The notes under the pieces: model-generated
Seen by the model: the letters and a program-made list of their open reading frames with translations, nothing else
Database searches by the model: none
Told to the model about the DNA's origin: nothing
Shown: positions 24,888 to 63,062 of the stretch, one piece after another
Position numbering within the stretch: the first letter of the stretch is position 1
Layout: every line of letters begins with the position of its first letter
Program-made: the position numbers and the translations under genes
Sequence record: ON506924
DNA: 64,000 nucleotides
Source of the DNA: Escherichia phage vB_EcoM_SCS4
Reading direction: 5' to 3' (one strand)

Positions 24888-24892
24888 TCAAC

Positions 24893-26119: not shown

Positions 26120-26144
26120 ATAATAACAAATAATTCTTAAAGCA
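26120..26144 (-). promoter_or_regulatory. Candidate MotA-dependent middle promoter for gene 31
   Basis: - strand ATGCTTTAA (MotA-box-like TGCTTtA) followed 12 nt later by TATTAT. Confidence 0.35.
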
Positions 26145-26145
26145 T

Positions 26146-26691: not shown

Positions 26692-27272
26692 TATTCACCA
26701 CAGAATTCGTTGATATTTTCCCAGTTTAACTTATTCAAGTTTTTCTTAGGAACATTAAACACTTCAATACCTGCATTTCGCAGAATATCATCCCAGCCAG
26801 GTTTATTTTTATCGTATGTTTCACAATAAACCAGCTTTTTAATACCAGATTGAGCTATCGCTTTTGCACAATCTGGGCAAGGAGAAAGTGTTACATACAT
26901 AGTAGCACCTTCAATAGAAGAACCATTTCGTGCAGCAAACAAAATTGCATTTAGTTCAGCATGAATTTCATTTTTAGACGACCATTCAGAGTGAGCGCTA
27001 CGATGTTCTTTCGCCAAAACAAAACGATCAGTTGAACCAAATGATACGCATTCAGGCTTATGGCCTTGAATGATAGTGTGTTTAGGCTTATTCAACAACC
27101 AACCTTGCTCAGCAGCATAATCACAACAGTTCACACCCCCTGCGGGTGAACCATTATACCCAGTAGAAATAATACGTCCATTCTTTTCAATTACTGCTCC
27201 TACCTTCCAGGAGCAACATTTTGATTCCTGTGATACTAAATATGCAATTTGAAGTACTGTACTCGCTTTCAT
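26691..27272 (-). CDS. cd: dCMP deaminase
   Basis: 193-aa ORF with cytidine/dCMP deaminase zinc motifs HAELNAI and PCPDCAK. Confidence 0.93.
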   Translation of the reverse strand: MKASTVLQIAYLVSQESKCCSWKVGAVIEKNGRIISTGYNGSPAGGVNCCDYAAEQGWLLNKPKHTIIQGHKPECVSFGSTDRFVLAKEHRSAHSEWSSKNEIHAELNAILFAARNGSSIEGATMYVTLSPCPDCAKAIAQSGIKKLVYCETYDKNKPGWDDILRNAGIEVFNVPKKNLNKLNWENINEFCGE

Positions 27273-27607
27273 TTCATAATCACCAGATAAGCAGATTTAG
27301 CAGTTTCAACACGATAAATTTCGTGACGAAGTTTAGTTATACTTTTAATAACAGAACTAATTATATTCTGCCCATCTTTAAAGCGGTTTTTCTTATCAAT
27401 AAAAATTGCGCCAACCATCTTTTTGTGAAGCTCAACTGGATACTTCGTCACAATAATAGCATCATTCACAGAAGGATGAATACTATTCACCAGAGTATCA
27501 TTCATTAAAGTTATTCTAATGAACTGTGCTGTTTCAGAATCAAGCGCTCTATGATCGCCAGTATCATTTTCAAGACAATTATCAATTATATCAGTTAAAT
27601 TCATCAT
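27269..27607 (-). CDS. Hypothetical protein (cd.x)
   Basis: 112-aa ORF. Confidence 0.55.
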   Translation of the reverse strand: MMNLTDIIDNCLENDTGDHRALDSETAQFIRITLMNDTLVNSIHPSVNDAIIVTKYPVELHKKMVGAIFIDKKNRFKDGQNIISSVIKSITKLRHEIYRVETAKSAYLVIMK

Positions 27608-27843
27608 AGTACGCCATACACCCTTTGTGCTTCAACTAATCCATCAAAATCCAGTTTAAGATGCGATATTTGATCGCCATCACCTGGATTCACAATTACT
27701 AATACTGAACGAGGAGTTTCGGTAATAACACGAACCGATGTTTCAGGAAATCGTTCAGAAACCTTATTTACTAATTCCTGTGCAAATAGTTTAACTTTTT
27801 CTTGGAATTCTTTAACAGTAATTGGTTTTTCACTTAGCAGCAT
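27604..27843 (-). CDS. Hypothetical protein (cd.x)
   Basis: 79-aa ORF. Confidence 0.55.
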   Translation of the reverse strand: MLLSEKPITVKEFQEKVKLFAQELVNKVSERFPETSVRVITETPRSVLVIVNPGDGDQISHLKLDFDGLVEAQRVYGVL

Positions 27844-28364
27844 GTTGATCCCAGCTCCTTACTTTCAACGTTTTTAACTAATTTGACAGAAACTAATTCA
27901 GCATCTTGAGTAATCATTACCGGACCTTCTTCATACTCTTCAAGATATTCTAGTGCTTTCTTTTTAGCTTCTTCCTTCGTATCAGTTTGAGCATAGATAT
28001 AAAACATACAACCAGTAATACCTACTACTTTCCACTTAATTTCTTTATCAGTTTTAATTTCAAATTTACTGACAGAATCATCTTTTTGAACTTCTTCGAA
28101 AAAAGAATATTCTAACATATAAGCAATTGAAAATAGCGGGCTAACTTTATAGGATTCTCCCATTACATCAACAGCTTTATACCAGCAGTCATCAATTTCG
28201 CGTTTAATGCTAATAACATTTTTCGCAGGATCTATTTTTACTTTAAATGAATTTTCCCCAATAAACTGGGCAATTCGTTTATTAGCCCCGCAAGTTTCAT
28301 TAAAAATATCTTTATACCCAGTTTTAAAGCGATAAACCTTATCTTCTTCAAACCATTCGCTCAT
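27834..28364 (-). CDS. Hypothetical protein (cd.x)
   Basis: 176-aa ORF with upstream early promoter. Confidence 0.6.
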   Translation of the reverse strand: MSEWFEEDKVYRFKTGYKDIFNETCGANKRIAQFIGENSFKVKIDPAKNVISIKREIDDCWYKAVDVMGESYKVSPLFSIAYMLEYSFFEEVQKDDSVSKFEIKTDKEIKWKVVGITGCMFYIYAQTDTKEEAKKKALEYLEEYEEGPVMITQDAELVSVKLVKNVESKELGSTCC

Positions 28365-28392
28365 TTCAATTTCCTCATTTGTTTTTGGTAGA

Positions 28393-28425
28393 GCTATAAT
28401 ATCACAACTCTACCGTAAAGTAAAC
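28393..28425 (-). promoter_or_regulatory. T4-type early promoter (GTTTAC -35, TATTAT -10)
   Basis: - strand GTTTAC ... TATTAT with ggtagag/ctctacc inverted repeat. Confidence 0.4.
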
Positions 28426-28427
28426 CA

Positions 28428-28733
28428 TTAAATCGCTTTGAATTCCGCAGTTTGAGATTCAAAGCGAATGTCGCCTTTGATAACTAGCTCAGCATCAAGA
28501 CCGAATACAACAATGATATGCGCGGAACCTGGATACAACGTAATGGCAATAGAATCCACCTGGTCTGGAAGCAAAGTGTTCAATACATGAGTCACTTGAG
28601 CATGGATTCGAAGCTCAGCTGCGTTATCAAGTTTTTCAAACATATTATTAGCGATAATTTGGCTAAACACTACTTCTACGATTTTAGAGTAAGTCGGAAA
28701 CATATTTACCTCACATAATTTTCTTCGAGCCAA
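28428..28733 (-). CDS. Hypothetical protein (cd.x)
   Basis: 101-aa ORF. Confidence 0.55.
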   Translation of the reverse strand: MARRKLCEVNMFPTYSKIVEVVFSQIIANNMFEKLDNAAELRIHAQVTHVLNTLLPDQVDSIAITLYPGSAHIIVVFGLDAELVIKGDIRFESQTAEFKAI

Positions 28734-28898
28734 TCAATAACATCCAAAGCGTTATCAAAAGTTTCGCCATCTACTTTGTCTTCTGTTTCATAATCAAGAA
28801 CATCTAGGCCTACTCTTCCGTCAACAATAGGCCATAGACAAAATAGATATTTCTTTTCTTTTTCAATTTTATCACAAAGACGATAAATCTTTTCTAGG

Positions 28899-28906
<8 letters not shown>
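28706..28906 (-). CDS. Hypothetical acidic protein (cd.x)
   Basis: 66-aa ORF. Confidence 0.5.
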
Positions 28907-30299
<1,393 letters not shown>

Positions 30300-30303
<4 letters not shown>

Positions 30304-30530
30304 TTATTTTTCTCAACCAATGATTGAATATAATCATGCAGGTCTTTAGATGCTTTACCCCACTTATTTTGATATTCATTTTTAAGATTAGCACGTGATT
30401 GAGCTAATAAAACATCATTAGTTGGAGGTAAAGATTCTAATCGCTGAATCTGGCGTCCATAAATCATTGCAGCCATCTCGGATTCATAAATCAATCCTTT
30501 GAGATGCTCAAATTGATGCCATGAAATCAT
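30300..30530 (-). CDS. Hypothetical protein (pseT.x)
   Basis: 76-aa ORF. Confidence 0.55.
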
Positions 30531-30826: not shown

Positions 30827-31176
30827 TTAGAAAGGTCCTGGATGTCTTCTGCNAANTTNTTGAAGGAGTTGTTGATTTGTTTTTCAACCAATCCTGGCTT
30901 ATGAGCCACCACATCCGCCTTCTTTGCATCTTTGCGCAGTTTTTCATTTTCACGCTCAATAGCAGCAATTGCCTCACGATTTTTATTATTCATCGCATCA
31001 ATATAATTATACTGAATTCGCAAATTATTTAATGCTAAAGCGTTTTCATTGGCTGTTTTTGTAATTTCTGCAACAGACGTTTCTAATCTTTCTACCTTAT
31101 TTTTTAAAATAATAGATGTTCCGCCAAATGCTATTACAAGTAATAGCAATCCAGCTGTAAAATTACTTACATGCAT
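30823..31176 (-). CDS. N-terminally membrane-anchored coiled-coil protein, candidate i-spanin
   Basis: N-terminal TM segment (AGLLLLVIAFGG) then coiled-coil periplasmic domain; three ambiguous codons. Confidence 0.5.
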   Translation of the reverse strand: MHVSNFTAGLLLLVIAFGGTSIILKNKVERLETSVAEITKTANENALALNNLRIQYNYIDAMNNKNREAIAAIERENEKLRKDAKKADVVAHKPGLVEKQINNSFXXXAEDIQDLSK

Positions 31177-33349: not shown

Positions 33350-34528
33350 TTAAAAGTATTTTTTAAAACTCATCATAACTTTATCATCAACATCATTATC
33401 AATCTGTGCAACAAGGTAAGATGACAGTTCTACTTCTTGTGGCGCGGATTGAACATTATCAGAATTAAGATATTCACGAATCCAAGGATATGGATGTTTA
33501 ACCGNAGCATCGGTAATTGGGCATGGAAGACCGCACTGTTTCATACGAGATACAGTTAAGTAATCAATAAAGCTCCACATGCTATTTGTATTTAATCCAG
33601 GAACATCGCCATCTTTNAATAAATGAACTGCCCAATCTTTTTCTTGGCGGTTAACTTCCATGAAAATATCAACTGCTTCTTGTTCACACTCTTGAGCAAT
33701 TTTAACCCATTGATCGCCATCAGTACCAGATTGAAGTTGACGAATAATATATTGGGTGCCTTTAAGGTGAAGCTGTTCATCGCGTGCAATGAACTTCATA
33801 ATCTTGGCATTACCTTCCATGATTTCCATGTTCTTATGGAAGTTAAAGGTACATGCGAAAGATACATAAAAACGAATAGCTTCCAATGCGTTGATTACAT
33901 GCAAACAGAGGTAAAGAGATTTCATTAGCTCACGCTTCCAATATGTCTCATGCTCAATAGTTCGGTTTAATCGAACGTCTTCGTCAGCATATTCTTTAGG
34001 TAGTTCGATATCAGCTTTAGCGTTTTCCCAATAACGAGTTTTAATCAGAACATCATCATAATAACGTCCAATGGATTCAGCACGTTTCATAATAGCTTCA
34101 TCTAATACAATTTCATCAAATACCTTTGACGGATCAGTATAAAGATTTCGCATGATATGTGTATATGAACGGCTGTGAATAGTTTCACTAAAAGTCCATG
34201 TAGCAACCCATGTATCAAGGCTTGGGTCTGAAATTAATGACATAAGTACAGCAGATGGCGCGCGACCCTGAATGCTATCTAAAAGTGATTGATACTTCAG
34301 ATTATTAGTAAAAATATTTTGCTGATACTGAGGAAGCTTATTAAACTGTGCAGCATCCATCATCAAGTTTACTTCTTCAGGACGCCAAAAAAATGATAAA
34401 TGATTTTCAATAAGTTCTTCAAATACTCTATGTCGTTGAATATCATNTCGAGCTAAACCCAATCCAGAACCAAAAAACATAGGTTCTTTTAAAACATCAA
34501 CTGGATTTGTGTTAAAAATTGTGCTCAT
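33350..34528 (-). CDS. nrdB: Ribonucleotide reductase small subunit NrdB, uninterrupted (no intron)
   Basis: Continuous 392-aa ORF spanning the N- and C-terminal regions of an R2 protein; three ambiguous codons. Confidence 0.92.
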
Positions 34529-34579
34529 AAATTTTCCGCTTAGTTAATAGTTGGTGACTCGTCCGTGAGTCAAATTATA

Positions 34580-36844
34580 TCATAAATTACAGGATGAACA
34601 ATCTTCAGCTTTTGGAGTTTCTATTTCATAATCATCAGTACCAGAACCATCGCGGGTATTATGATAATAGAAATTTTTTCCGCCAAAATACCAAAAATAC
34701 AAAAGGTCATCAATCATTATTGACATTGGAACCTTTCCTTTTGGAAAAATCTGCGGGTCATAGTATGTATTCGCCGAAGCTGATTGACAAACCCATTTCA
34801 GCATAATAGCTACCTGCGTAAGATAAGGTTTATTACCTTTCTTAGCTAATTTCCACGTATAATCATATAGGTCTATGTTATGCTCAATATTGGGCACGAC
34901 TTGATTAAAGGAACCCTCTTTTGATTCTTTAACAGAGACTGGTCCACGTGGAGGCTCGATACCGTTTGTACTGTTAGAAACTTGGGAAGATGACTCACAT
35001 GGCATAAGTGCTGATAATGTGCTATTACGGATGCCAAAGAGCTTAAGGTCTTCCCGCAGCGACGACCAGTCACAAACGTATTTTGGAGCTGCGATTTGGT
35101 CAATCTTTTTATTGTACCAGTCGATAGGTAATTCGCCTCGAGACCAACGAGTGTCTGAATAATATTCGCAAGGTCCTTTTTCTTTGGCGAGATTAATGGA
35201 TGCTTTAATGAGTCCATACTGTAATCTCTCAAATAGTTCATGTGTTAAATCGTTGGCATCTTCATAAGAAGCAAAGTTACTTGCCAGCCAAGCTGCATAG
35301 TTTGTAACACCTACACCGAGGTTACGACGCTTTTTAGCTTTTTCTGCTTCAGGAACTGGATATCCTTGGTAATCCAAAAGATTATCAAGAGCACGAACTT
35401 GAACTTCTGCCAATTCATTAATTTTATCTTGGTCTTGCCAATCAAAATTATCTAGTACGAATGCAGAGAGAGTACACAATCCAATTTCAGCATCAGGACT
35501 ATTCACATCATTTGTTGGAATAGCAATTTCACAGCACAAGTTACTCTGACGAATAGGTGCCTTTTCACGAATAAACGGAGTATAGTTATTCGTATTATCA
35601 ATGAACTGTACATAAATCCTTGCTGTTCCTGAACGTTCAGTCATGAGCAATTCAAACAGTTCACGGGCTTTAATACGCTTTTTACGAATATTAGGGTCTT
35701 TTTCTGCCGCTTCGTATAATTCACGGAAACGGTCTTGGTCTTTAAAATAAGAATAATAAAGCTCTCCACCCATTTCATGGGGACTGAACAAAGTAATGTA
35801 ATCGTTCTTTCCAAAACGTTCCATCATCAAATCATTCAGTTGAACACCATAATCCATATGACGAATGCGGTTTTCTTCTACGCCTTTGTTATTTTTCAAA
35901 ACGAGAAGATTTTCAACTTCCAAATGCCAAATAGGATAATAAGCAGTAGCAGCGCCGCCACGAATTCCACCCTGTGAACATGATTTAACTGCAGTCTGAA
36001 AATGTTTCCAAAAAGGAATAACACCGGTATGGCGTACTTCACCCATGCCAATCTTAGAACCTTCGGCACGAATCATACCAACGTTAATACCAATTCCAGC
36101 ACGTTTGGAGATATATTCAACAATTGAAGCGGAAGCCTTATTGATAGACTTCAATGAATCTCCTGCCTCAATAACAACACATGAACTAAACTGTCGAGTC
36201 GGAGTACGACAACCAGCCATAATAGGAGTTGGCAATGAAATCTGTCGAGTAGATACTGCTTCATAAAAACGGATAACATGTTTTAATCTATCAACAGGTT
36301 CGTCTTGATGCAATGCCATTCCAATAGCCATAAATGCAAACTGTGGAGTTTCATAAATTTGACCAGTGGTTTTATCTTTAACTAAATATTTTTCTTTTAA
36401 TTGCATCGCCCCGGAATAAGTAAATTCCATATCCCGTTCGTGCTTAATTTTTGATTCTAAAAATGTAATTTCTTCTGCTGAATATTTTGACAATAATTCA
36501 GGGTCATATTTACCTTCATTTACACAGTAAGAAATATGGTCAATAAATGAACGTGGTTCATACTGCCCATAAACATGCTTACGAAGAGCAAACATTAAAC
36601 AGCGTGCAGCTACATATTGATAATCAGGTTCTTCAACCGAAATAGAATTCGCAGCAGCCTTAATGACAATAGTCTGAATATCATCAGTTGTCATTCCATC
36701 ACGGAGATAAGATTTAATATTTTCATATAATTCATAAGGATCTACTGATGTTCCCTCAGCTGCCCAAGATAAAACTTTAATAATTTTTTGTGGGTCAAAG
36801 CTCTGAGAAACACCACTACTTTTGATAACATTAATTAATTGCAT
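34580..36844 (-). CDS. nrdA: Ribonucleotide reductase large subunit NrdA
   Basis: 754-aa ORF with ATP-cone N-terminus and C-terminal CxxC tail. Confidence 0.95.
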   Translation of the reverse strand: MQLINVIKSSGVSQSFDPQKIIKVLSWAAEGTSVDPYELYENIKSYLRDGMTTDDIQTIVIKAAANSISVEEPDYQYVAARCLMFALRKHVYGQYEPRSFIDHISYCVNEGKYDPELLSKYSAEEITFLESKIKHERDMEFTYSGAMQLKEKYLVKDKTTGQIYETPQFAFMAIGMALHQDEPVDRLKHVIRFYEAVSTRQISLPTPIMAGCRTPTRQFSSCVVIEAGDSLKSINKASASIVEYISKRAGIGINVGMIRAEGSKIGMGEVRHTGVIPFWKHFQTAVKSCSQGGIRGGAATAYYPIWHLEVENLLVLKNNKGVEENRIRHMDYGVQLNDLMMERFGKNDYITLFSPHEMGGELYYSYFKDQDRFRELYEAAEKDPNIRKKRIKARELFELLMTERSGTARIYVQFIDNTNNYTPFIREKAPIRQSNLCCEIAIPTNDVNSPDAEIGLCTLSAFVLDNFDWQDQDKINELAEVQVRALDNLLDYQGYPVPEAEKAKKRRNLGVGVTNYAAWLASNFASYEDANDLTHELFERLQYGLIKASINLAKEKGPCEYYSDTRWSRGELPIDWYNKKIDQIAAPKYVCDWSSLREDLKLFGIRNSTLSALMPCESSSQVSNSTNGIEPPRGPVSVKESKEGSFNQVVPNIEHNIDLYDYTWKLAKKGNKPYLTQVAIMLKWVCQSASANTYYDPQIFPKGKVPMSIMIDDLLYFWYFGGKNFYYHNTRDGSGTDDYEIETPKAEDCSSCNL

Positions 36845-37401: not shown

Positions 37402-37713
37402 TTATACCGCCATCTTTCCTTTAATTGGCGGGTGAGATACATAGTTGTTAAGAACGAAATTATGCGGCTTTGCGAATTGACTCAACCAAAATACCTGCGA
37501 TTCTGTGTTCCATTCATCAAATTCATCTGGAAATTTTAATTGTAATTCGCATAAATCCATAGGTTCACGACGCAAAATTTCTTTACATTGTTCTACGTGA
37601 TTCATATAGATATGAGTATTACCGCCAGAAAATATCAAATCTCCAGGAATAAGATTACACATCTTAGCTACAATATGAACTAACGCAGCATATGATGCAA
37701 TATTAAACGGTAG
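37402..37713 (-). CDS. td: Thymidylate synthase, exon 2
   Basis: Exon begins CTACCG (LPFNIASYA...) right after the intron terminal G; exon 1 + exon 2 = 286 codons. Confidence 0.9.
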   Translation of the reverse strand, partial: LPFNIASYAALVHIVAKMCNLIPGDLIFSGGNTHIYMNHVEQCKEILRREPMDLCELQLKFPDEFDEWNTESQVFWLSQFAKPHNFVLNNYVSHPPIKGKMAV

Positions 37714-38729
37714 CATTATGTTCAGATAAGGTCGTTAATCTTACCCCGGAATTATATCCAGCTGCATGTCACCATGCAGAGCAGACTATATCTCCAACTT
37801 GTTAAAGCAAGTTGTCTATCGTTTCGAGTCACTTGACCCTACTCCCCAAAGGGATAGTCGTTAGGCATTTATGTAGAACCAATTCCATTTATCAGATTTT
37901 ACACGATAAGTAACTAATCCAGACGAAATTTTAAAATGTCTAGCTGCATCTGCTGCACATTCAAAAATAACCCCATCACATGAAATCTTTTTAATATTAC
38001 TAGGCTTTTTACCTTTCATCTTTTCTGATATTTTAGATTTAGTTATGTCTGAATGCTTATGATTAAAGAATGAATTATTTTCACCTGAACGATTTCTGCA
38101 TTTACTACAAGTATAAGCAGAAGTTTGTATGCGAACACCACACTTACAAAACTTATGGGTTTCTGGATTCCAACGCCCATTTTCACTTCCATATTTACCA
38201 TAAAGAGCTTTTCGGCCTTTTACGCCGAGTTTAAGCATATTTACTTTAACAGTTTCAGAGCGTTTCTTGATAATTTCTTCTTTTAATGGATGTGTAGAAC
38301 ATGTATCACCAAACGTTGCATCAGCAATATTGTATCCATTAATTTTAGAATTAAGCTCTTTAATCCAAAAATTTTCTCGTTCAATAATCAAATCTTTCTC
38401 ATATGGAATTTCTTCCAAAATAGAACATTCAAACACATTACCATGTTTGTTAAAAGACCTCTGAAGTTTTATAGAAGAATGGCATCCTTTTTCTAAATCT
38501 TTAAAATGCCTCTTCCATCTCTTTTCAAAATCTTTAGCACTTCCTACATATACTTTATTGTTTAAAGTATTTTTAATCTGATAAATTCCACTTTTCATAA
38601 ATACCTCTTTAAATATAGAAGTATTTATTAAAGGGCAGTCCTACAATTTAGCACGGGATTGTCTACTAGAGAGGTTCCCCGTTTAGATAGATTACAAGTA
38701 TAAGTCACCTTATACTCAGGCCTCAATTA
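37714..38729 (-). mobile_element. Group I self-splicing intron in td (1016 nt) carrying the I-TevI gene
   Basis: 5' splice site after GGU of exon 1; intron 5' region reads UAAUUGAGGCCUGAGUAUAAGGUGACUUAUACUUGUAAUCUAUCUAAACGGGGAACC; ends in G before exon 2. Confidence 0.88.
37861..38598 (-). CDS. I-TevI: Intron-encoded GIY-YIG homing endonuclease I-TevI
   Basis: 245-aa ORF with GIYQIKN...KVYVGSA GIY-YIG domain and C-terminal zinc finger/DNA-binding region, inside the td intron. Confidence 0.92.
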   Translation of the reverse strand: MKSGIYQIKNTLNNKVYVGSAKDFEKRWKRHFKDLEKGCHSSIKLQRSFNKHGNVFECSILEEIPYEKDLIIERENFWIKELNSKINGYNIADATFGDTCSTHPLKEEIIKKRSETVKVNMLKLGVKGRKALYGKYGSENGRWNPETHKFCKCGVRIQTSAYTCSKCRNRSGENNSFFNHKHSDITKSKISEKMKGKKPSNIKKISCDGVIFECAADAARHFKISSGLVTYRVKSDKWNWFYINA

Positions 38730-39278
38730 ACCCAAGAAAACATCTACTGAGCGTTGATACCATTGAAGGTCAAGGTATCCATTACGCACATTAAACTGAT
38801 AGAACATATGACAAGGCGGTAATGCCATATATTTAAGTTCAGCTGGATTCCATGCAGAAACAATTTGACGCCTATCATTTGGCAATTTTTTAATACGATC
38901 AACAACTTCTATAATTTGGTCTACACCGCCAAAATCGCGCCATTGTTTTCCATAAATTGGACCAAGTTCACCGCTATGGTATCCTAAATCTTTTGCTTGA
39001 TTTTCGTAATTTTCATCCCAGACTGTTTTGCCTTGAATTAATGAATCATGTTGAATTAATCGTAAATCATTGACATTTGTGCTTCCCGATAAAAACCATA
39101 TTAGCTCAGCAATGCAAGCTTTCCAGGCGAGCTTCTTAGTTGTTACTGCAGGAAAACCTTTAGTTAAATCCCAGCGTAATTTAGTACCGAACAAAGCAAT
39201 TGTTCCTGTGCCCGTTCTGTCATCGGTTTCATAGCCATTTTCAAAAATGTCTTTAATTAAATCTTGGTATTGTTTCAT
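38730..39278 (-). CDS. td: Thymidylate synthase, exon 1
   Basis: 183 codons ending ...DVFLG, with an in-frame TAA directly after the 5' splice site. Confidence 0.9.
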
Positions 39279-39323
39279 TTAGTACCTTATATAAATTATA
39301 ATACATTTTATGAAGCTAAATAA

Positions 39324-39671
39324 TCAATACGGTTTAGCATCAAATTTTCTCTCAATTTCAGGCGTGAAATATAATTCTTTACCGCGTTTGGAAAAGCGAC
39401 CAATAATATGATAATTATTCTCATCAAACGTAATATTACCAATATCCATAGCTTTCAACCAAATATCGATATTTCTATCCAGCTTTATGTCAAAATTCCA
39501 ATACGGAGAACTATTACCGAAAATACTGCAAGCGGATTCAGTGAAACAACTACTATAAATCTTGTCTTTAGGAACTACTAATTGATAGACGCCTTTAATA
39601 AACTGAGGACCCTGCCATTTTGGTTGTTTCACGTCTTTTTCTAATAGAATAGGGTAATAATTAAAATTCAT
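39324..39671 (-). CDS. Hypothetical protein inserted between frd and td
   Basis: 115-aa ORF with ATG start; no recognisable motif; occupies a position where T4 has overlapping frd/td. Confidence 0.6.
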   Translation of the reverse strand: MNFNYYPILLEKDVKQPKWQGPQFIKGVYQLVVPKDKIYSSCFTESACSIFGNSSPYWNFDIKLDRNIDIWLKAMDIGNITFDENNYHIIGRFSKRGKELYFTPEIERKFDAKPY

Positions 39672-39691
39672 ATTTTCCGCNACGTGTTATT

Positions 39692-40518
<827 letters not shown>

Positions 40519-42623: not shown

Positions 42624-42690
42624 TTTTATTTCCTTTTTAATTTAATTAACAGTTGGTGCTATGACNATGTATGACCTCATAGCTGGTCAG
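42624..42690 (-). promoter_or_regulatory. Gene 32 translational operator: leader pseudoknot plus A/U-rich unstructured region
   Basis: - strand leader contains UGACC...GCUAUGA...GGUCA...UCAUAGC (H-type pseudoknot arrangement) followed by an A/U-rich tract before the AUG. Confidence 0.55.
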
Positions 42691-42722
42691 TGAGATAATT
42701 ATAATCTNTTTATAATANNCAA

Positions 42723-44884: not shown

Positions 44885-44946
44885 ATGAACCTCGTTCAAT
44901 TAGTGAGATTTCTATTATATACTATCNAAATCTTAAAGTAAACANG

Positions 44947-44954
44947 TATAAATA
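44947..44954 (+). promoter_or_regulatory. T4-type late promoter (TATAAATA) for gene 34
   Basis: Exact TATAAATA 35 nt upstream of the gp34 ATG. Confidence 0.6.
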
Positions 44955-44988
44955 CTTATTATTGAAAACANAATAGGAGCCNGNGAGA

Positions 44989-48866: not shown

Positions 48867-49982
48867 ATGGAAAAATTTATGGCAGAGTTTGGACAAGGAT
48901 ATGTCCAAACGCCATTTTTATCGGAAAGCAATTCAGTAAGATATAAAATAAGTATAGCGGGTTCTTGCCCGCTTTCTACTGCGGGACCATATGTTAAATT
49001 TCAGGATAATCCTATCGGAAGTCAAACATTTAACGCAGGTCTTCATTTAAGAGTTTTTGACCCTTCTACAGGAGCATTAGTTGATAGTAAGTCATATGCT
49101 TTTTCGACTTCAAATGATACTACATCAGCTGCTTTTGTTAGTTTCATGAATTCTTTTTCAAACAACAGACTTGTTGCTATATTAACCAGTGGAAAGGTTA
49201 ATTTTCCTCCTGAGGTAGTGTCTTGGCTAAGAGCCGCGGGAACGTCTGCCTTTCCATCTGATTCTATATTGTCAAGATTTGACGTATCATATGCTGCTTT
49301 TTACACTTCTTCTAAAAGAGCTATCGCATTAGAGCATGTTAAACTAAGTAATAGAAAAAGCACAGATGACTATCAAACTATTTTAGATGTTGTATTTGAC
49401 AGTTTAGAAGACGTCGGAGCTACGGGATTTCCTAAAAGAACTTATGAAAGCGTTGAGCAATTTATGTCAGCGGTTGGTGGAAATAATAACGAAATTGCAC
49501 GTTTACCAACTTCATCCGCGATAAGTAAACTCTCTGATTATAATTTAATTCCTGGCGATGTTCTTTATCTTAAAGCACAGCTATATGCTGATGCCGATTT
49601 ACTTGCGCTTGGAACTACAAATATATCTATCCGTTTTTATGATGAATCGAATGGATATATTTCTTCAACACATGCTGAGTTTACTGGACAAGCTGAGTCA
49701 TGGGAATTAAAGGAAGATTATGTAGTTATTCCAGAAAATGCAGTAGGATTTACGATATATGCACAAAGAACTGCCCAAGCAGGTCAAGGTGGCATGAGAA
49801 ATTTAAGCTTTTCTGAAGTATCAAGAAACGGCGGAATTTCAAAACCTGCTGAATTTGGCGTCAATGGTATTCGAGTTAATTACGTCTGTGAATCTGCTTC
49901 ACCTCCGGATATAATGGTACTTCCTACGCAAGCATCGTCTAAAACTGGTAAAGTGTTTGGGCAAGAATTTAGAGAAGTTTAA
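48867..49982 (+). CDS. 35: Long tail fiber hinge protein gp35
   Basis: 371-aa ORF between 34 and 36. Confidence 0.9.
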   Translation: MEKFMAEFGQGYVQTPFLSESNSVRYKISIAGSCPLSTAGPYVKFQDNPIGSQTFNAGLHLRVFDPSTGALVDSKSYAFSTSNDTTSAAFVSFMNSFSNNRLVAILTSGKVNFPPEVVSWLRAAGTSAFPSDSILSRFDVSYAAFYTSSKRAIALEHVKLSNRKSTDDYQTILDVVFDSLEDVGATGFPKRTYESVEQFMSAVGGNNNEIARLPTSSAISKLSDYNLIPGDVLYLKAQLYADADLLALGTTNISIRFYDESNGYISSTHAEFTGQAESWELKEDYVVIPENAVGFTIYAQRTAQAGQGGMRNLSFSEVSRNGGISKPAEFGVNGIRVNYVCESASPPDIMVLPTQASSKTGKVFGQEFREV

Positions 49983-50013: not shown

Positions 50014-50021
50014 TATAAATA
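50014..50021 (+). promoter_or_regulatory. T4-type late promoter (TATAAATA) for genes 36-37-38
   Basis: Exact TATAAATA 24 nt upstream of the gp36 ATG. Confidence 0.6.
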
Positions 50022-50044: not shown

Positions 50045-50734
50045 ATGGCTGATTTAAAAGTAGGTTCAACAACTGGAGGCTCTGTCATTTGGCATCAAGG
50101 AAATTTTCCATTGAATCCAGCCGGTGACGATGTACTCTATAAATCATTTAAAATATATTCAGAATATAATAAACCACAGGCAGCTGATAATGATTTCGTT
50201 TCTAAAGCTAATGGTGGCACAAAGTCTAGAGGTTTCCAAAAAGAAGTAGAATTTAAAGAAGGCGTTAAGATTTCTGCGACGTTTTCTGGTGGTTCAGACC
50301 TGAATGGGTTATATTCTGGCAATGGAGATGGAGCTTCCAGAGAAAAAGCTAACATGGATTTACATTCATGGTACGGCATTGGTATTTGGAATACATGCAC
50401 AGGTGATGGGGTCCAGGGACGCACAATCTGGTTTAATGCCAGGCGTGGTACAATTGAAACAGTTGGCGATATTGTTTCAGGCCGACAAGTTATTTCTAAT
50501 GCTTCAGTACCGACCGGCCCAGCACACTTAACTCGCAAAGATTATGTCGATGGAGCAATAAATACTGTTACGACAAATGCAAACTCTAGAGTGTTACGAT
50601 CTGGTGACACTATGACAGGTAATTTAACAGCACCAAACTTTTTCTCGCAGAATCCTGCATCTCAACCCTCACATGTTCCACGATTTGACCAAATCGTGAT
50701 TAAGGATTCTGTTCAAGATTTCGGCTATTATTAA
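50045..50734 (+). CDS. 36: Long tail fiber distal connector gp36
   Basis: 229-aa ORF beginning [21 protein letters not shown]. Confidence 0.9.
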
Positions 50735-50742
50735 GAGGACTT

Positions 50743-53700
50743 ATGGCTACTTTAAAACAAATACAATTTAAAAGAAGCAAAACTGCAGGTCAACTTCCTG
50801 CTGCTTCAGTATTAGCCGAAGGTGAATTGGCTATTAATTTAAAAGATAAAACAATTTTCACAAAAGATGACTCAGGCAATGTTATAGAATTAGGTTTAAA
50901 ATATGGAGGAACAATTGATGGTTCTTTAACTGTTAATGGAAATATAATTGGAAATTTAACAGGTAACGCTGCAACTGCAACGAAATTAAAAACAGCACGA
51001 AAAATTAATGGTATATCCTTTGATGGGTCAAAAGATATCACGCTAACTCCATCTGACATAAATGTCAATAGCACAACGTTTATAAAAAATAACGGCGAAT
51101 TACCTGTTGACGCTAATTTAGATGAATATGGGCCCACTGAAGAGTATCTTGGCGTTTGGTCGAAATCTACTTCAACAAATGCGCAACCGGCAAATAAATT
51201 CCCAGAAGAAAATGCCGTAGGTGTACTAGAAGTATTTGTGGCCGGTCAATTTGCTGGTACTCAGAGATATACTGTAAGATCTGGTAACGTATATGTTCGA
51301 TCTTTGTCTGCTAAATGGAACGGTGTTAACGGTCCGTGGGGAGTTTGGCGTAATGTTCAAGCGTCAACTCGTCCACTTTCACAAACGATTGACCTTGATA
51401 GCTTGGGAGAATTAGAACATTGCGGCTTATGGCGAAATAGTTCAAGTTCTATCGCATCGTTTGACCGTCATTATCCAGAAGAAGGAGCAGCCGCACAAGG
51501 ATTTTTGGAAATTTTTGAGGGTGGTTTATACACAAGAACTCAACGTTATACAACTAGATTTGGTGTTGTTTATACTCGCTGTCTTGCTGCTGCATGGGAT
51601 GCATCTGCGCCTAAATGGGGACCGTGGCAACAAGTCGGTAATGTCACACCGGCGACTTTCTATGACGGAGACCTGAATGATTTTAAAGCTCCTGGGTTAT
51701 ATAACATTTTAGGCACTGATGCCGTTATTAACTGTCCTACAGGTGAAGGTTTGCCGACTGTTATTGTTGGTTTGCTGGAAGTTAAACAGCGTGCTTCTGG
51801 CGGTGCTATTTTCCAAAAATTTACTACTGCCGGAACGGCTTCAACTACTCGCGATCGTATTTTTGAGCGTGCATATACTGGTGGTGCGTGGGGTGCATGG
51901 AACGAAGTATATACATCTTATTCTCTGCCAATTACTTTGGGTATGGGTGGTATTAAAGCTCAATTAGCGGAGTTAGATTGGCAAACCTTTGATTTTGTCC
52001 CTGGTAGTATGTTTAGTGTTCCTTTGAACAAAATAAAGAATATGCCAGCAAATATGGATTGGGGCACGATTGATGGAAACCTGGTTATGTTTTCCGTTGG
52101 TCCTAGCGAACGCACTAGCACAGGACGTACTGTTCAGATTTGGCGCGGCACCGTATCCCAGACAAACTACCGTTATTTTGTCGTTCGTGTGTTCGGTAAT
52201 TCTGGAAATAGAACTTGCACAGTTCGTCGTGTTGTTCTTGAAGATGGTCGCCACACATGGACAGCTCAACAAGATTTTAATGGCGCAGTTAACTTTAACT
52301 CTACTGTTAACCTTAATAACACTACCACATTTAAAACAGAAGTTAAATTTCGCTCATTGAATGCATTCCGTATGTATGGCGGAAAATTTGGTACATTTTT
52401 ACGTAATGATGGAGAGAGTCTTTATATTCTTTCCACCGACGAAGATGATCAACATGGAAACTTTAATACAAATAGACCTTTCCGTTATGAATTAAGAACT
52501 GGTGATGTTACTTTGGGTGGTGCTAGTGGTGCTAACGTTTTAAAATTAAAACGTGATTCTCTCACCGCATTTTTTGGTGGTGATATTAACATGAAAGGCA
52601 CGATGACTTTTGACGCCGGACGTTTAGGATCACGAGATTATTTTAAATTTAACCATTGGGGTGATAGTAATAATGCTCGTGATAACATTATTCAGTTAGA
52701 AGATAGCAAAGGCGTTCATTTTTCCACTGAACGTACTTTAGCGACTGGTGCAATTAAAACTAGATTCTTTGGCGAAACATTCACTGACGGGACATTATAC
52801 CTAAATCAGATGAATAATAGTTCTGAACGATTCTCTATCAACAATTGGGGAAGTTCAGAAGTTGGTCGCGCGGCAGTATTGGAAGTCGGCGATTCCAAAG
52901 GTTATCACTTCTATACGGAACGTAGAACAGATGACACCGTTTTATTTTCTGTAGCTGGTGCTTTGACCGTGCGTGGACCTAACGGAATAACCATCAAAAA
53001 CTCAACTGGTGCACGCCATATCTGGTTTAGAGATGACAGCGAATCGGAAAAGGCTGTTATTTGGGCGACCGATGAGGGTATTTTACATATTCGCAATAAC
53101 AACGGTGGACAATTTAGTCATCACTTCCAGGGCGCAATGATTAAACTGGAAGGGCGTGTTCCTTATGATGCAACAAAGGGGATTATCCGTGGTGAAGTTG
53201 ATGGTGGTGCATATGTTGCATGGAGAGACCGCCCTGCTGGTTTGTTGGTTGACTGCCAGAAAAGTATTGACAGTGCTCATGCTGTTTGGAAAGCGGTTGA
53301 TTGGGGGCGTCAATATATCGCTGCTATGGACGTTCACTGTCCGGGTGATGGTAATAATACTGCGACAGCGATTCTTCATGTTCAGGCTGCTGATTATCAA
53401 TTCCACGCAAGCGGAGAATTCGTTACCAGTGGTAACGGAAACTTTAACGATGTGTATATTCGTTCTGACCGTCGTCTGAAAATTAATGTTGAAGATTATA
53501 CCGGAAATGCGTTAAGTTTGATTGGTAAGCTGAAAGTGAAAACTTACGATAAAGTTAAATCTCTTAAGGACCGTGAAATTATCGGTCATGAGATTGGCAT
53601 TATCGCACAGGATTTACAAGAAATATTACCGGAAGCGGTGAAATCTTCAAAAGTTGGCAATCTTGATAATCCAGACGATGTTCTGACAATTTCTAACTCG

Positions 53701-53817
53701 GCAGTGAATGCTCTTTTAATTAAGGCTATTCAGGAAATGAGTGAAGAAATTAAAGAATTGAAAACTCCTTTCTTTACTAAAATTGCTCGCAAAATTAGTA
53801 AATATTTTAAATTCTAA
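50743..53817 (+). CDS. 37: Long tail fiber distal subunit gp37 (T2-type, with C-terminal chaperone-like domain)
   Basis: 1024-aa ORF; N-terminus conserved with gp36/gp34-type repeats; C-terminal ~117 aa resemble an intramolecular chaperone domain. Confidence 0.93.
53464..53814 (+). other. Candidate autoproteolytic intramolecular chaperone domain at the gp37 C-terminus
   Basis: Segment begins [14 protein letters not shown]... and ends in a helical [21 protein letters not shown] tail; resembles S74-type chaperone domains of other fibers; assignment by motif recall only. Confidence 0.4.
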
Positions 53818-53823
53818 CAACAA

Positions 53824-53839
53824 GGGGGCAACGCCCCCC
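53824..53839 (+). terminator. GC hairpin after gene 37
   Basis: gggggc-aac-gccccc stem-loop, weak T-run. Confidence 0.4.
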
Positions 53840-53854
53840 TTTGGAGTATAAATT

Positions 53855-54655
53855 ATGGCAGTAGTTGGTGTTCCTGGTTGGATTGGAAGTTCAGCCGCAA
53901 ATGAAACAGGACAAAGATGGATGAGTCAAGCGGCTGGACAATTAAGATTGGGTGTTCCTTGCTGGATGAGTCAATTTGCAGGTCGCTCGCGAGAAATTAT
54001 TCATACTGTAGGAGCAAACCACAATTTTAATGGTCAGTGGTTCCGTGATAGATGCTTTGAAGCTGGCGGTGCACCTATTGTATTCAATATTGTTGGTGAT
54101 ATCGTTTCTTATTCTAAAGATGTACCGCTTTTCTTTATGTATGGTGACACTCCTAACGAATACGTTGTCCTTAATATTCATGGTGGTGTCCATATGTGGG
54201 GTCGAGGTGGTAATGGTGGATACACTCACTCAGGTGGAGATGGTAACGGTACACAAGGCGGTCATGTTATTCAAAATGATATCGGTGGACGGCTTCGTAT
54301 TTGGAACTACGGTGTTATAGCTGCTGGCGGTGGTGGCGGTGGTGGTATTGCATATCGTCCACACTCAGGGGCAAACTGGCAAGATATCGGTGGCGGTGGC
54401 GGTCGACCTTTCGGTGGTGCTGGCGGTGGCGGTTATTCCGGTGGTGCTGCTTCTTATGAAGGTCCGGGTGGTGGTTACAACTATGGTAACGCACACTCCG
54501 GCGCGGGTGGTAATGCTGGCGCTGCTGGTCAGAATGCATGGTCTGATGGCGGTAAAGTTCTTAAAGTTGGTGTTGGTGGTGCTTCTGGTCATGCCGTGTT
54601 TGGATCAGCTCCAACATGGCAGAATGTTGGAGCAATATATGGTTCAAGAGTATAA
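53855..54655 (+). CDS. 38: gp38 receptor-recognising adhesin, T2-type, with glycine-rich motifs
   Basis: 266-aa ORF with poly-Gly islands ([31 protein letters not shown]) separated by variable segments and a conserved C-terminus; unlike the short Gly-poor T4 gp38 chaperone. Confidence 0.88.
54197..54604 (+). repeat. Glycine-rich motif repeats and intervening variable segments within gene 38
   Basis: Runs of GGN codons (ggtggtggcggtggtgg) recurring about 5 times. Confidence 0.55.
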
Positions 54656-54685
54656 TTTGAATAAATATCCTTAAAAGGAGGGTCT

Positions 54686-55342
54686 ATGGCAGCACCTAGA
54701 ATATCATTTTCGCCCTCTGATATTCTGTTGGGTGTTCTAGATCGCTTGTTCAAAGATAACGCTACCGGGAAAGTTCTTGCTTCCCGAGTAGCTGTCGTAA
54801 TTCTTTTATTTATGATGGCGATTGTTTGGTATAGGGGAGATAGTTTCTTTGAGTACTATAAGCAATCAAAGTATGAAACATACCGTGAAATTATTGAAAA
54901 GGAAAGAAATGCACGCTTTGAATCTGTCGCCCTGGAACAACTCCAGATAGTTCATATATCATCTGAGGCAGACTTTAGTGCGGTGTATTCTTTCCGCCCT
55001 AAAAACTTAAACTATTTTGTTGATATTATAGCATATGAAGGAAAATTACCTTCAACAATAAGTGAAAAATCACTTGGAGGATATCCTGTTGATAAAACTA
55101 TGGATGAATATACAGTTCATTTAAATGGACGTCATTATTATTCCAACTCAAAATTTGCTTTTTTACCAACTAAAAAGCCTACTCCCGAGATAAACTACAT
55201 GTACAGTTGTCCATATTTTAATTTGGATAATATCTATGCTGGAACGATAACCATGTACTGGTATAGAAATGATCATATAAGTAATGACCGCCTTGAATCA
55301 ATATGTGCTCAGGCGGCCAGAATATTAGGAAGGGCTAAATAA
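54686..55342 (+). CDS. t: Holin T
   Basis: 218-aa ORF with a single N-terminal TM (VAVVILLFMMAIVWY) and large periplasmic domain; directly after gene 38. Confidence 0.9.
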   Translation: MAAPRISFSPSDILLGVLDRLFKDNATGKVLASRVAVVILLFMMAIVWYRGDSFFEYYKQSKYETYREIIEKERNARFESVALEQLQIVHISSEADFSAVYSFRPKNLNYFVDIIAYEGKLPSTISEKSLGGYPVDKTMDEYTVHLNGRHYYSNSKFAFLPTKKPTPEINYMYSCPYFNLDNIYAGTITMYWYRNDHISNDRLESICAQAARILGRAK

Positions 55343-56138: not shown

Positions 56139-56357
56139 TTATGCTTTGCGACTAAATTGTTCATAGTGCTGAATTACCTCTCTTAAACATTTGCATGTGA
56201 ATGAAAACTTTTTAGCTACACCACATTCAAATATATGTTCTCTTAAATCACGTGTATCGGTATATCCCATCTCAACAATAAAATGCCGTATTAAATTTTT
56301 ANCTTNNTCATTGAGAGAATTAAAATAATCGGATTTTGAATTAATTTCCCTGGCCAA
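56139..56357 (-). CDS. Hypothetical protein (arn.x); contains ambiguous codons
   Basis: 72-aa ORF. Confidence 0.5.
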   Translation of the reverse strand: MAREINSKSDYFNSLNXXXKNLIRHFIVEMGYTDTRDLREHIFECGVAKKFSFTCKCLREVIQHYEQFSRKA

Positions 56358-60134: not shown

Positions 60135-60141
60135 NTTTTCC

Positions 60142-60222
60142 TCACTNGTGTCCGAAGNCGCCNTTGNTTTTAANNTTNTTACGATANAANTNNNTCANNN
60201 NNTNNTTGTGGAANTTACTCAT
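60142..60222 (-). CDS. stp: Stp peptide (26 aa), activator of the host anticodon nuclease system
   Basis: Translation MSNFHN...FYRNNLKTKGVFGHQ; ATG overlaps the ndd stop; lies in an N-dense stretch so several residues are undetermined. Confidence 0.65.
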   Translation of the reverse strand: MSXFHXXXXXXXYRXXXKXXGXFGHX

Positions 60223-61633: not shown

Positions 61634-61897
61634 TCATAGTTCAATCTCAGCGATTTTCATTTCATTACTATTAATAGCCTCTTTAAGACTATCTGAAAGA
61701 ATTACATTCCAGTGGTCATTCATATGACCATTAACTAAGCGTGTAATTTCTTCAGGAGTTGAAAAATAAGGCTGATCAGACTCCCAATGCGATAATCCTA
61801 AGCGAGTATAAATCATGCCTTCATCGTCGCTAGAATATTCAACTGACACAAACTCATCAGTTATTTTATGTTTAGCGTAATAAAATTTAAATTTCAT
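61634..61897 (-). CDS. Hypothetical protein (ndd.x)
   Basis: 87-aa ORF with upstream early promoter. Confidence 0.5.
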   Translation of the reverse strand: MKFKFYYAKHKITDEFVSVEYSSDDEGMIYTRLGLSHWESDQPYFSTPEEITRLVNGHMNDHWNVILSDSLKEAINSNEMKIAEIEL

Positions 61898-61930
61898 TTA
61901 TTCTCCAAATCCGTATCAGTCGATAGTTGT

Positions 61931-61960
61931 ATAATACCACGGTCCTTGTGGTATGTAAAC
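61931..61960 (-). promoter_or_regulatory. T4-type early promoter (GTTTACA, TATTAT)
   Basis: - strand GTTTACA, 17-nt spacer ending CCGTGG, TATTAT. Confidence 0.4.
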
Positions 61961-61976
61961 TAGTTTATGAAAATTT

Positions 61977-62534
61977 TTAGATGGAAAGATACCAGCCGTT
62001 GTAGTTGCTTTTTCTTACAACCTTACGAAGGTCTTCTCTATCACCGATGAACTTCGGAGTGTACTGGATGACACCTGGATGAATTTCTTTAGTGTTGAAT
62101 ATAATTATACAGTCAGCGACTTGGTGATTCAGAATGGGCCCTAGATTTATTCCAGAACCGTATGGATACTCTCCGCTGCATCCTGTTGTTACCGAAATCC
62201 AACGTGAGTCAGTTTGATGTGTCTTAACTTCTACACGAAGCCCACAGTATTTTGGATGTGCTAAAACATCCCATGCATACGTGTACGGATCATCGACATC
62301 TTCTTGACCTTTATTAACATACCCGCTTAGCCAATCTGCTACAAAAAACTCTGCGTATACAGCGATACGGCATCTTTCGATAACTTCTGCCTTATCCTGA
62401 TTTGGGTTCTGTTTTAAAGAGTATCTTGCAGTATCAGCAATTTTGACCTTCATTTCACTAGTCAAGTCACTGTTCGATAGGGTAAATGTCGGAATCTGAA
62501 ATAGTCTCTGTAAACCCGGATTCGTTTTCTGCAT
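61977..62534 (-). CDS. denB: Endonuclease IV (dC-specific ssDNA endonuclease) DenB-like
   Basis: 185-aa ORF at the T4 denB position between ndd and rIIB. Confidence 0.75.
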   Translation of the reverse strand: MQKTNPGLQRLFQIPTFTLSNSDLTSEMKVKIADTARYSLKQNPNQDKAEVIERCRIAVYAEFFVADWLSGYVNKGQEDVDDPYTYAWDVLAHPKYCGLRVEVKTHQTDSRWISVTTGCSGEYPYGSGINLGPILNHQVADCIIIFNTKEIHPGVIQYTPKFIGDREDLRKVVRKSNYNGWYLSI

Positions 62535-62796
62535 TTAGACTTTCCTTTTTACCACTGAGATAAGCGTTATACACTTTAAGAGTACCATAGTAAATTCGAT
62601 CATTTTCATCTAAAGAATTACGATCAAGTTCATCGAGATTCTTTTTGTCCATGACTATAACATCATTGCAGTAAAGAACTCCAAGTTTTTCATGCCCAAA
62701 CTCGAATTTATTGCAGTACACAATATTAGCGTAATGATTACCGTGTAGAGAAATTTCTTTTATGTCGGTGTCACCGATATTCATACAATAAATCAT
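62467..62796 (-). CDS. Hypothetical protein upstream of denB
   Basis: 109-aa ORF overlapping the denB 5' end by 68 nt in another frame; start uncertain. Confidence 0.45.
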   Translation of the reverse strand: MIYCMNIGDTDIKEISLHGNHYANIVYCNKFEFGHEKLGVLYCNDVIVMDKKNLDELDRNSLDENDRIYYGTLKVYNAYLSGKKESLNAENESGFTETISDSDIYPIEQ

Positions 62797-62816
62797 AATT
62801 TTTCCTTAAAACAAAA

Positions 62817-62828
62817 GGGCCGAAGCCC
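62817..62828 (-). terminator. GC hairpin gggcc-gaa-gccc
   Basis: Same hairpin family as 5034-5047 and 23992-24005. Confidence 0.35.
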
Positions 62829-62834
62829 TTTATT

Positions 62835-63062
62835 TTACTTGAATTGTGCAATTCTTTTCTCTAGACATTCAGCATAAGATTTCATTGAGATGAACTGTGA
62901 AAGTAGCAGTTCTTGCTCAACTGCGCTAACTGTTAGAAACTTTGCGCTTTCTAAAAATTTGCTCAGTGCATTAATTTTGAGCATTAATTGATCGTATTCT
63001 TCTTTTACTCGTGCTTGATAACCTAACATAATTTTCCTTAATATGATAAGGGCCGAAGCCAT
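62835..63062 (-). CDS. Hypothetical protein downstream of rIIB
   Basis: 75-aa ORF, stop/start coupled to rIIB. Confidence 0.5.
   Translation of the reverse strand: MASALIILRKIMLGYQARVKEEYDQLMLKINALSKFLESAKFLTVSAVEQELLLSQFISMKSYAECLEKRIAQFK

Follow-up and report, generated by a model that had tools for sequence, protein, structure and literature searches.

Our analyses identify gene 38 of the window (the whole stretch of 64,000 nucleotides that was analysed), located at 53855..54655 on the + strand and encoding 266 amino acids (aa) plus a stop codon, as the gene of a receptor-recognising adhesin of a kind that is already known: judged by its sequence, it is an Ox2-type member of the well-characterised T2-type gp38 adhesin family. 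[quoted passage not shown] Publications from 1987 to 2026 already cover the family, the alternation of Gly-rich and hypervariable parts in its members, their structure and modular recombination, and the prediction of the receptor from sequence, and no new biology is involved. A near-identical RefSeq genome already annotates gene 38 as a host-specificity tail fiber protein. Recognition of the gene as Ox2-type corrects labels given to close homologues (viz. "distal long tail fiber assembly catalyst", "hypothetical protein" and "tail protein and peptidase"), and it provides a testable receptor prediction for a close relative of ECML-134, one of the phages in EcoShield, a commercial anti-O157:H7 cocktail.

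The ATG of gene 38 is preceded at a distance of 8 nt by a Shine-Dalgarno sequence (GGAG; 53843..53846, + strand), and its right-hand conserved neighbour is the holin gene t (54686..55342, + strand; Pfam Phage_holin_T, 7.6e-117); the gene order g36-g37-g38-t in the window is that of T2, T6 and Ox2. Membership of the family was judged by a full-length match above the curated Pfam thresholds, and gp38 shows such matches to PF05268 (GP38; 8.6e-67, 225.6 bits against a cut-off of 25), where residues 47-266 cover positions 1-218 of the 218 in the profile, and to PF21721 (Gp38_N; 1.5e-19, 70.1 bits), where residues 1-42 cover positions 1-40 of 40. The protein also matches phrog_2056 ("tail fiber protein; host specificity") from residue 1 to 266 on positions 1-267 of 267 (6e-109), and a tblastn search has detected an adhesin of the gp38 type in 813 phage records, the top match being ECML-134 (98.9%). 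Glycine makes up 69 of the 266 aa (26%), its share being 34% in residues 101-266 vs 13% in residues 1-100, and seven, five and four Gly residues in a row occur at G158-164, G179-183 and G190-193, respectively. The original prediction allowed that these tracts might prove to be assembly artefacts. They are not, since their codons are a mix of GGT, GGC and GGA and the tracts are kept in hundreds of independent genomes, in the Sanger-sequenced Ox2 gene and in two crystal structures. The window contains 67 N bases, none of which lies in g37 or g38. Overlapping ORFs in the other frames of g38 were regarded as by-products of its GGN-rich sequence.

A gp38 layout of five Gly-rich motifs (GRMs) and four hypervariable segments (HVSs) with a conserved C-terminal end was defined by Trojet et al. 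(2011; PMC3157838) and adopted by Lutz et al. (2025; PMC12032242), and the protein encoded in the window conforms to it. Residues 1-46 (53855..53992, + strand), delimited by the PF21721 match and by segment identities, make up the N-terminal attachment domain that would dock on the gp37 tip, and they are identical to their counterparts in M1 at 46/46 positions and in T6 and Ox2 at 44/46 positions each. They are followed by a conserved beta-helix part (residues 47-115; 53993..54199, + strand), recognised from segment identities and the structural model described below, and by the specificity domain (residues 116-250; 54200..54604, + strand), which the conservation profile, the model and its structural match indicate to be a polyglycine-II sandwich. 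The conserved C-terminal 16 residues (54605..54652, + strand) are T6/PP01-like, and the identity to ECML-134 ends near their beginning, at 54607. Within the specificity domain, GRM1 (residues 116-121), GRM2 (135-164), GRM3 (179-187), GRM4 (216-222) and GRM5 (241-250) are separated by HVS1 (residues 122-134; 54218..54256), HVS2 (165-178; 54347..54388), HVS3 (188-215; 54416..54499) and HVS4 (223-240; 54521..54574), all on the + strand; these approximate boundaries were set here on the basis of conservation. Among 58 diverse gp38 homologues aligned with one another, with identities down to ~48%, the residue present in the window is common to 0.67-0.98 of the sequences in the five Gly-rich motifs vs 0.36-0.51 in the four variable segments, and the conservation of the C-terminal 16 residues is 0.72. 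Past residue 115, internal indels are confined to the variable segments (after residues 130, 172, 190-199, 210 and 230). Both the ORF and this conservation profile bear out the earlier description of a 266 aa protein with about five poly-glycine islands, variable segments between them and a C-terminus that is conserved.

An AlphaFold2 model built on the same alignment, with gp38 modelled alone, has a mean pLDDT of 85.9 and a pTM of 0.77. The pLDDT is >90 over most of the stretch from residue 50 to residue 266; over residues 1-45 it is low, as would be the case for a part of the protein that takes its fold against gp37. In a Foldseek search of the PDB, the model matches the gp38 receptor-binding domain of PP01 (9v85; E 1.3e-25, TM 0.88 by target, rmsd 2.8 A) and that of the S16 gp38-gp37 complex (6f45_D; E 3.7e-21, TM 0.76 by target), and the next match beyond these two has E>1. 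Because the model matches solely gp38 adhesins, the predicted fold of the protein is their rare combination of a beta-helix and a polyglycine-II sandwich. Homology to the same two solved structures is detected at the sequence level (PP01 9V85, 8e-67; S16 6F45_D, 1.7e-44; PMC12892980). The predicted fold and the Gly-rich motifs are alike in the three proteins, but PP01 and S16, both of which bind OmpC, have other loops, and their identity over the aligned structure is 61% and 42%, respectively.

The partner of gp38 is encoded by gene 37 (50743..53817, + strand), whose product of 1024 aa is a distal half-fibre subunit of the T2/T6 type (phrog_1699, 5e-233), and upstream of it lies gene 36 (50045..50734, + strand; 229 aa; Pfam Phage_T4_gp36, 1.5e-24) for the distal-fibre hinge connector. 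The identity of gp37 to its T6 counterpart is 74% over the full length, and that to T4 gp37 is 79% over residues 1-66 only. Residues 908-1024 (53464..53814, + strand) constitute a C-terminal intramolecular chaperone (Peptidase_S74) domain (PF13884, 3.2e-14 at residues 908-967), which matches the gp37 of PDB 6f45 and starts with the motif YIR|SDRRLK, the form YIRSDxRLK being common to the gp37 of Ox2, T6 and T2. By analogy with these homologues, auto-cleavage at YIR|SD is predicted to give a mature protein of 907 aa with the release of 117 residues. The proteolytic processing of T2 gp37 has been reported (Drexler et al., 1986, as cited in a passage of PMC3157838), and the predicted cleavage agrees with it. 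The tip of the mature gp37 would be identical to that of Ox2 at 25/60 positions over the last 60 residues.

Taken with what is described for homologues, these features suggest the following course of fibre assembly. Genes 36, 37 and 38 would probably be co-transcribed from a late promoter at 50014, and the trimerisation of gp37 would be aided by its own C-terminal chaperone domain, which would then cleave itself off at about Ser908. One gp38 would dock by its N-terminal ~46 residues on the exposed tip of the gp37 trimer, a stoichiometry of 1:3, and its C-terminal domain would form a polyglycine-II sandwich from the five conserved Gly-rich motifs, from which the four hypervariable segments would project as loops and contact the extracellular loops of an outer-membrane protein.

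Among the characterised adhesins closest to the gp38 of the window is the OmpA-specific gp38 of Ox2 (X05675, CAA29158), which was sequenced in 1987, lies between g37 and t as in the window, and likewise consists of 266 aa, of which 251 are identical (251/266, 94%) with 0 gaps. Seven of the 15 substitutions are located in the N-terminal half (at 6/7 of which the window has the residue of T6), 5 in the last 16 residues, and 3 in the specificity domain (viz. N174 for K, G193 for R and N209 for D). All four hypervariable segments are very similar to those of Ox2 (70/73 identical; HVS1 13/13, HVS2 13/14, HVS3 26/28, where G193 and N209 are the differences, and HVS4 18/18), and they are also similar to those of FL08 (61/73; 11/13, 12/14, 23/28 and 15/18) and AV119 (62/73; 11/13, 13/14, 23/28 and 15/18). 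The segments of M1, FL18 ("type 2" OmpA), T6 (Tsx) and T2 (FadL/OmpF), on the other hand, are identical at no more than 17/73 positions overall and no more than 8 in any segment. FL08 and AV119 carry the same set of hypervariable segments, including the stretch R-x-H-S-G-A in HVS2, but their N-terminal attachment domain is of another type (24-26/46 identical).

Both FL08 and AV119 need ompA for plaquing and are placed in the "type 1" OmpA group, whose host range is broad (Lutz et al., 2025; PMC12032242); Ox2 binds OmpA loops (PMC12032242), and OmpA is required by RB32 (PMC3157838), whose gp38 is 88% identical to that of the window (tblastn). The R-x-H-S-G-A stretch is reported to be the main OmpA contact in type-1 adhesins, and the key contacts reported for FL08 are R165-V-H-S-G-A170, R181 and R262 (PMC12032242); their counterparts in the window are R168-P-H-S-G-A173, R184 and R265 (FL08 numbering + 3). 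The change from V to P in this stretch (P169) is shared with Ox2, whereas FL08 and AV119 have V. Alignment with the adhesins of other T-even phages, the course proposed in the original prediction, hence places the variable segments nearest to the Ox2/FL08/AV119 set, and since all of these bind OmpA, we predict OmpA as the receptor and consider it probable, by analogy, that gp38 is a "type 1" adhesin. The accompanying proposal that host range is set by the variable segments would hold by analogy with close relatives, in which it is backed by published swaps and mutants (PMC3157838; bioRxiv 10.64898/2026.04.02.716166): a Tsx-to-OmpA switch has been engineered by swapping only gp38 from HVS2 onwards, and the substitution Q206L in a variable segment of RB68 gp38 changes the receptor from OmpF to OmpW (bioRxiv 10.64898/2026.04.02.716166).

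At the DNA level, g38 has a composite character. T6-like DNA is found in codons 61-100 and in the last ~20 codons (92-98% identity vs 78-81% to Ox2), and codons 121-240, which comprise all four hypervariable segments, are Ox2-like (93-98% vs ~50% to T6). As read from the sequence, this pattern fits the recombination at conserved motifs that Trojet et al. (2011; PMC3157838) have described. We also note that it fits the engineered switch from HVS2 onwards (bioRxiv 10.64898/2026.04.02.716166). In ECML-134, g37 is 100% identical to that of the window, and the gene for gp38 (YP_009102722, "tail fiber protein; host specificity") has identical DNA from the start codon to codon 251, after which the two proteins differ by A252/S, A260/I and S264/P, which result from 8 differing nucleotides among the last 49 nt. 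The region of complete identity extends over 50192-54606 (4,416 nt; g36 from ~codon 50, all of g37, and g38 to codon 251), the left junction (50192) falling within g36 and the right one (54607) within the conserved 3' end of g38, and the divergence from ECML-134 in the flanks of the fibre locus is 3-7%. More broadly, window positions 14217-64000 align with ECML-134 over 49,784 nt; there are 1,103 substitutions and 0 indels, and mismatch-free blocks of about 1-4.4 kb, of which the fibre-tip block 50192-54606 is the longest, alternate with stretches of ~1 mismatch per 25 nt. The substitutions are biased towards synonymous changes (180:71 in g34 and 20:1 in motA) and 55% of them carry the T4 allele; on both grounds we regard the differences as natural alleles and have rejected random noise as their source. 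When the database was searched for another known phage from which the flanks might derive, the best matches were 95.8% (left) and 97.6% (right), so that no such parent was identified, and a look-up of the exact gp38 sequence of the window found none on record.

Two other accounts of gp38 itself have to be weighed against an OmpA-binding adhesin. The GenBank label "distal long tail fiber assembly catalyst" on close homologues (H17, P0028 and P0043) would make gp38 a T4-style assembly chaperone outside the virion and leave receptor binding to gp37, as in T4, where the receptor-binding tip is carried by gp37 itself (PMC3157838). The label's probable origin is the annotation of T4 gp38, and we consider the account extremely improbable. 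T4 gp38 (NP_049864; lambda Tfa-like) has the same gene name, the same place between g37 and t, and a GC-rich hairpin ahead of it, but its sequence is unrelated: the best BLASTP alignment spans 7 residues (E=3.2), in place of the alignment along the length of T4 gp38 that would have spoken for the chaperone. At 183 aa and 5.5% Gly, and assigned to PHROG 105 ("tail fiber assembly"), it is the short, Gly-poor assembly protein that the original prediction took it for, and not a virion adhesin. It is found in none of the PHROG families matched by the gp38 of the window; a hidden homology through phrog_1121 (181 positions; gp38 residues 1-61) was considered and rejected, as T4 gp38 maps to phrog_105. 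The gp37 of the window, moreover, carries the self-chaperoning S74 domain (PF13884) and has no T4-type needle with its receptor domain, whereas T4 gp37 lacks Peptidase_S74 and has PF07484 (Collar) and PF03335 (fibre repeats) instead; and the fold predicted for gp38 equals that of adhesins crystallised on the gp37 tip. The Pfam and PHROG families, the fold, the chaperone domain of gp37 and the lack of alignment with T4 gp38 all agree with the initial reading of a separate T2-type adhesin in place of the T4 arrangement. For an adhesin, the primary receptor might still be OmpC, Tsx, OmpF or LPS, if the few residues that distinguish it from Ox2 gp38 have shifted its specificity. One exchanged residue in a variable segment can be enough to switch or broaden the receptor, which is our reservation about OmpA: besides the RB68 mutant, Ox2 host-range mutants with altered receptor specificity are cited in a passage of PMC12892980, and gp38 departs from Ox2 at three positions of the specificity domain and has P169 where FL08 and AV119 have V. 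The isolation host of ECML-134, the closest relative, was E. coli O157:H7, in which OmpA and LPS are possibly not the same as in K-12, and the O157 phage PP01 uses OmpC (PMC12892980). A receptor other than OmpA nevertheless appears quite unlikely to us, given that all four hypervariable segments fall in the Ox2/type-1 OmpA set and are very unlike those of T6, T2, M1 and FL18, that the OmpC-binding PP01 adhesin is just 61% identical over the aligned structure, that every characterised adhesin of the set (Ox2, FL08, AV119 and RB32) is OmpA-dependent, and that the position of a gp38 in the phylogeny is predictive of its receptor (Lutz et al., 2025; PMC12032242).

The exact identity to ECML-134 bears on the history of the locus and on the record itself. 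If the sequence is real, it could mean that a complete distal-fibre/adhesin cassette passed very recently, by lateral transfer, between two lineages of Tequatrovirus, its adhesin being a T6-like/Ox2-like chimera whose three specificity-domain differences from Ox2 are perhaps tuned to O157:H7-type OmpA variants; we give this history somewhat less than an even chance. It could otherwise be that g36'-g37-g38 is the ECML-134 reference carried into a reference-guided, SNP-only consensus, the reads of another fibre tip having been left unmapped. The 49,784 nt aligned with ECML-134 contain no indel despite the 1,103 substitutions, whereas other T-even pairs of similar divergence have indels in the same genes (e.g. 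FL08, 5205 vs 5202 nt), and scattered single N bases cluster at hypervariable spots; the lack of indels and these clusters suggest a reference-guided consensus on ECML-134. The mismatch-free 50192-54606 also coincides with the region that is most variable among T-even phages, no record matches the flanks above 95.8-97.6%, and the exact gp38 is not on record. We nonetheless find such a carry-over rather doubtful. The blocks 23886-30320 and 37457-39533, which are likewise mismatch-free, cover conserved genes to which the reads of any T-even phage would map, so that the identity there is real and the genome a genuine patchwork. The identical block includes an island of 367 nt (50531-50897) whose identity is 91% even to T4 and which shows 0 mismatches to ECML-134; foreign reads would map to it, and ~8-15 mismatches would therefore be expected under a carry-over at the rates of the flanks (~1 per 45 to 1 per 25 nt). 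The synonymous bias of the substitutions and the 55% that carry the T4 allele are also as in natural variation. The classification of gp38 is unchanged under either the carry-over or the cassette exchange.

The original prediction also described the fibre tip as a mosaic module in a window that is otherwise T4-like in gene order and homing-endonuclease content. The mosaic holds insofar as there is a block lacking DNA similarity to T4, which is lost over 50220-50531 (the middle of g36) and over 50897-54661 (g37 from ~codon 52 to just past the g38 stop); the identity to T4 is 93-99% on either side of these stretches, and similarity resumes at 54661. The extent of this loss indicates a T4-divergent cassette of ~4 kb that includes nearly all of g37 together with g38. 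The description falls short in two ways, as the divergence takes in the middle of g36 and most of g37 as well as the tip, and as T4 is the exception. The 3' part of T4 g37 and its g38 have been replaced by lambda-derived sequence, and the T2/T6-type adhesin is predominant (Trojet et al., 2011; PMC3157838). Our own counts agree, with adhesin-type gp38 in 813 phage records vs T4-type gp38 in 297, and the arrangement in the window is the common form. The gene order is indeed T4-like, window positions 14860-64000 being collinear with T4, but the homing-endonuclease content is not: the comparison, which covers four genes in T4 120-169 kb (viz. I-TevIII, mobE, I-TevI and SegG), found I-TevI alone (37864-38598, - strand), I-TevIII, mobE and SegG being absent from the compared region of the window.

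Some observations were also made on the signals around these genes. The late-promoter consensus TATAAATA is present at 50014, before g36, and a search for an exact copy ahead of g37 and g38 found none. The sequence TATAAATT at 53847-53854 was considered as a g38-specific promoter and rejected because it abuts the ATG and is therefore too close to it, and the sigma-70-like matches in the promoter scan were no commoner than in shuffled sequence. Between the g37 stop codon and the g38 ribosome-binding site is a GC-rich stem-loop (GGGGGC-AAC-GCCCCC; 53822..53841, + strand), seen in the sequence and its fold, with a folding energy of -13.3 kcal/mol (z only -0.97 vs shuffles). An intrinsic terminator at this place was rejected, as the terminator scan was negative and the energy is not significant; with no T run behind the hairpin, the stem-loop is not a canonical terminator. 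A hairpin is also present at the g37-g38 junction of Ox2, T6, T2 and T4, with other stem and loop sequences.

The window sequence of vB_EcoM_SCS4 aligns without gaps, over positions 14217-64000, to positions 117000-166783 of its closest relative, Escherichia phage ECML-134 (NC_025449); 1,103 bases are substituted, 60 positions are N, and indels are absent. The two phages share identical blocks (viz. window 50192-54606, 26669-30320, 23886-26667, 37457-39533, 16416-17882, and 61818-62924), between which lie stretches that diverge from ECML-134 by 3-20%, and the substitutions are biased toward synonymous changes and carry the T4 allele in 55% of cases. This ungapped patchwork of identical and divergent blocks, together with the synonymous bias and the share of T4 alleles, suggests that the window phage is a recombinant relative of ECML-134. 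The sequence is possibly a reference-guided consensus assembly. Single N bases are found in clusters at 9060-9071, 17594-17597, 20027-20039, 30853-30859, 42708-42719, 44927-44984, and 60135-60214 (about 20 in 80 nt at the last site), one of which gives rise to the 'XXX' in the ORF at 56139-56357. These are tight clusters of single bases rather than gaps, a pattern commonly produced by ambiguous consensus calling where a site is hypervariable or misaligned.

Compared with T4, the window lacks the nrdB intron carrying I-TevIII, mobE along with nrdB.1, and segG (loci 33852-34584 and 42686-42722). The td intron endonuclease I-TevI is present (37864-38598; protein 96.7% identical), and its gene is located within a block that is identical to ECML-134. 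No DNA of T4 120-169 kb matches window segments 17977-19332, 27847-28362, 39281-39684, and 40292-40496; compared with T4, these represent insertions or replacements, and one of the four (27847-28362, within 27834-28364) corresponds to the hypothetical protein ECML134_213.

The largest identical block covers part of g36, all of g37, and g38 to codon 251. Within gp37, the last 60 residues of the predicted mature protein (residues 848-907, window 53284-53463) share only 24-25 of 60 identities with T6 and Ox2, in contrast to the attachment domains of gp38, which are identical at 44-46 of 46 positions. Conservation of the gp37 tip is limited to its final ~12 residues; hence, the published 'lock and key' co-variation between this tip and gp38 may depend on a very short stretch. 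Residues 58-123 of the hinge protein gp35 (gene 35, 48867-49982) match the Pfam family PF15711, known as ILEI or interleukin-like EMT inducer (1.1e-07; 32.6 bits, cut-off 27).

Exact matches to the T4 late-promoter consensus TATAAATA are located just 5' of g34 (44947-44954) and g36 (50014-50021) and are absent 5' of g35, g37, and g38, an arrangement consistent with transcription units g34-g35 and g36-g37-g38. The motif shows no excess in the window as a whole (10 occurrences vs. 8.8 by chance). In the space separating the g37 stop from the g38 ribosome-binding site, a GC-rich hairpin is present in the window (53822-53841) and in the comparison loci of Ox2 (L001, ~762-777), T6 (L006, ~8696-8710), T2 (L005, ~9055-9072), and T4 (L002, ~9626-9645), even though the flanking T4 genes are unrelated to the T2-type genes. 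Its stems and loops (AAC, UUU, UUCG) differ among phages; the T4 (z=-3.9) and T2 (z=-2.3) hairpins are significantly stable, and that of the window (z=-1.0) is not. The hairpin may represent an RNA stability or translation-tuning element.

Among the database homologues of gp38, a 303-aa protein (P0077), in which part of a Peptidase_S74 domain is joined to an entire GP38 adhesin, is probably a gp37-gp38 read-through or mis-call, and a gp38 cluster of 155 member sequences (P0045) bears an NCBI name assigning it to Bacillus cereus, presumably due to contamination.
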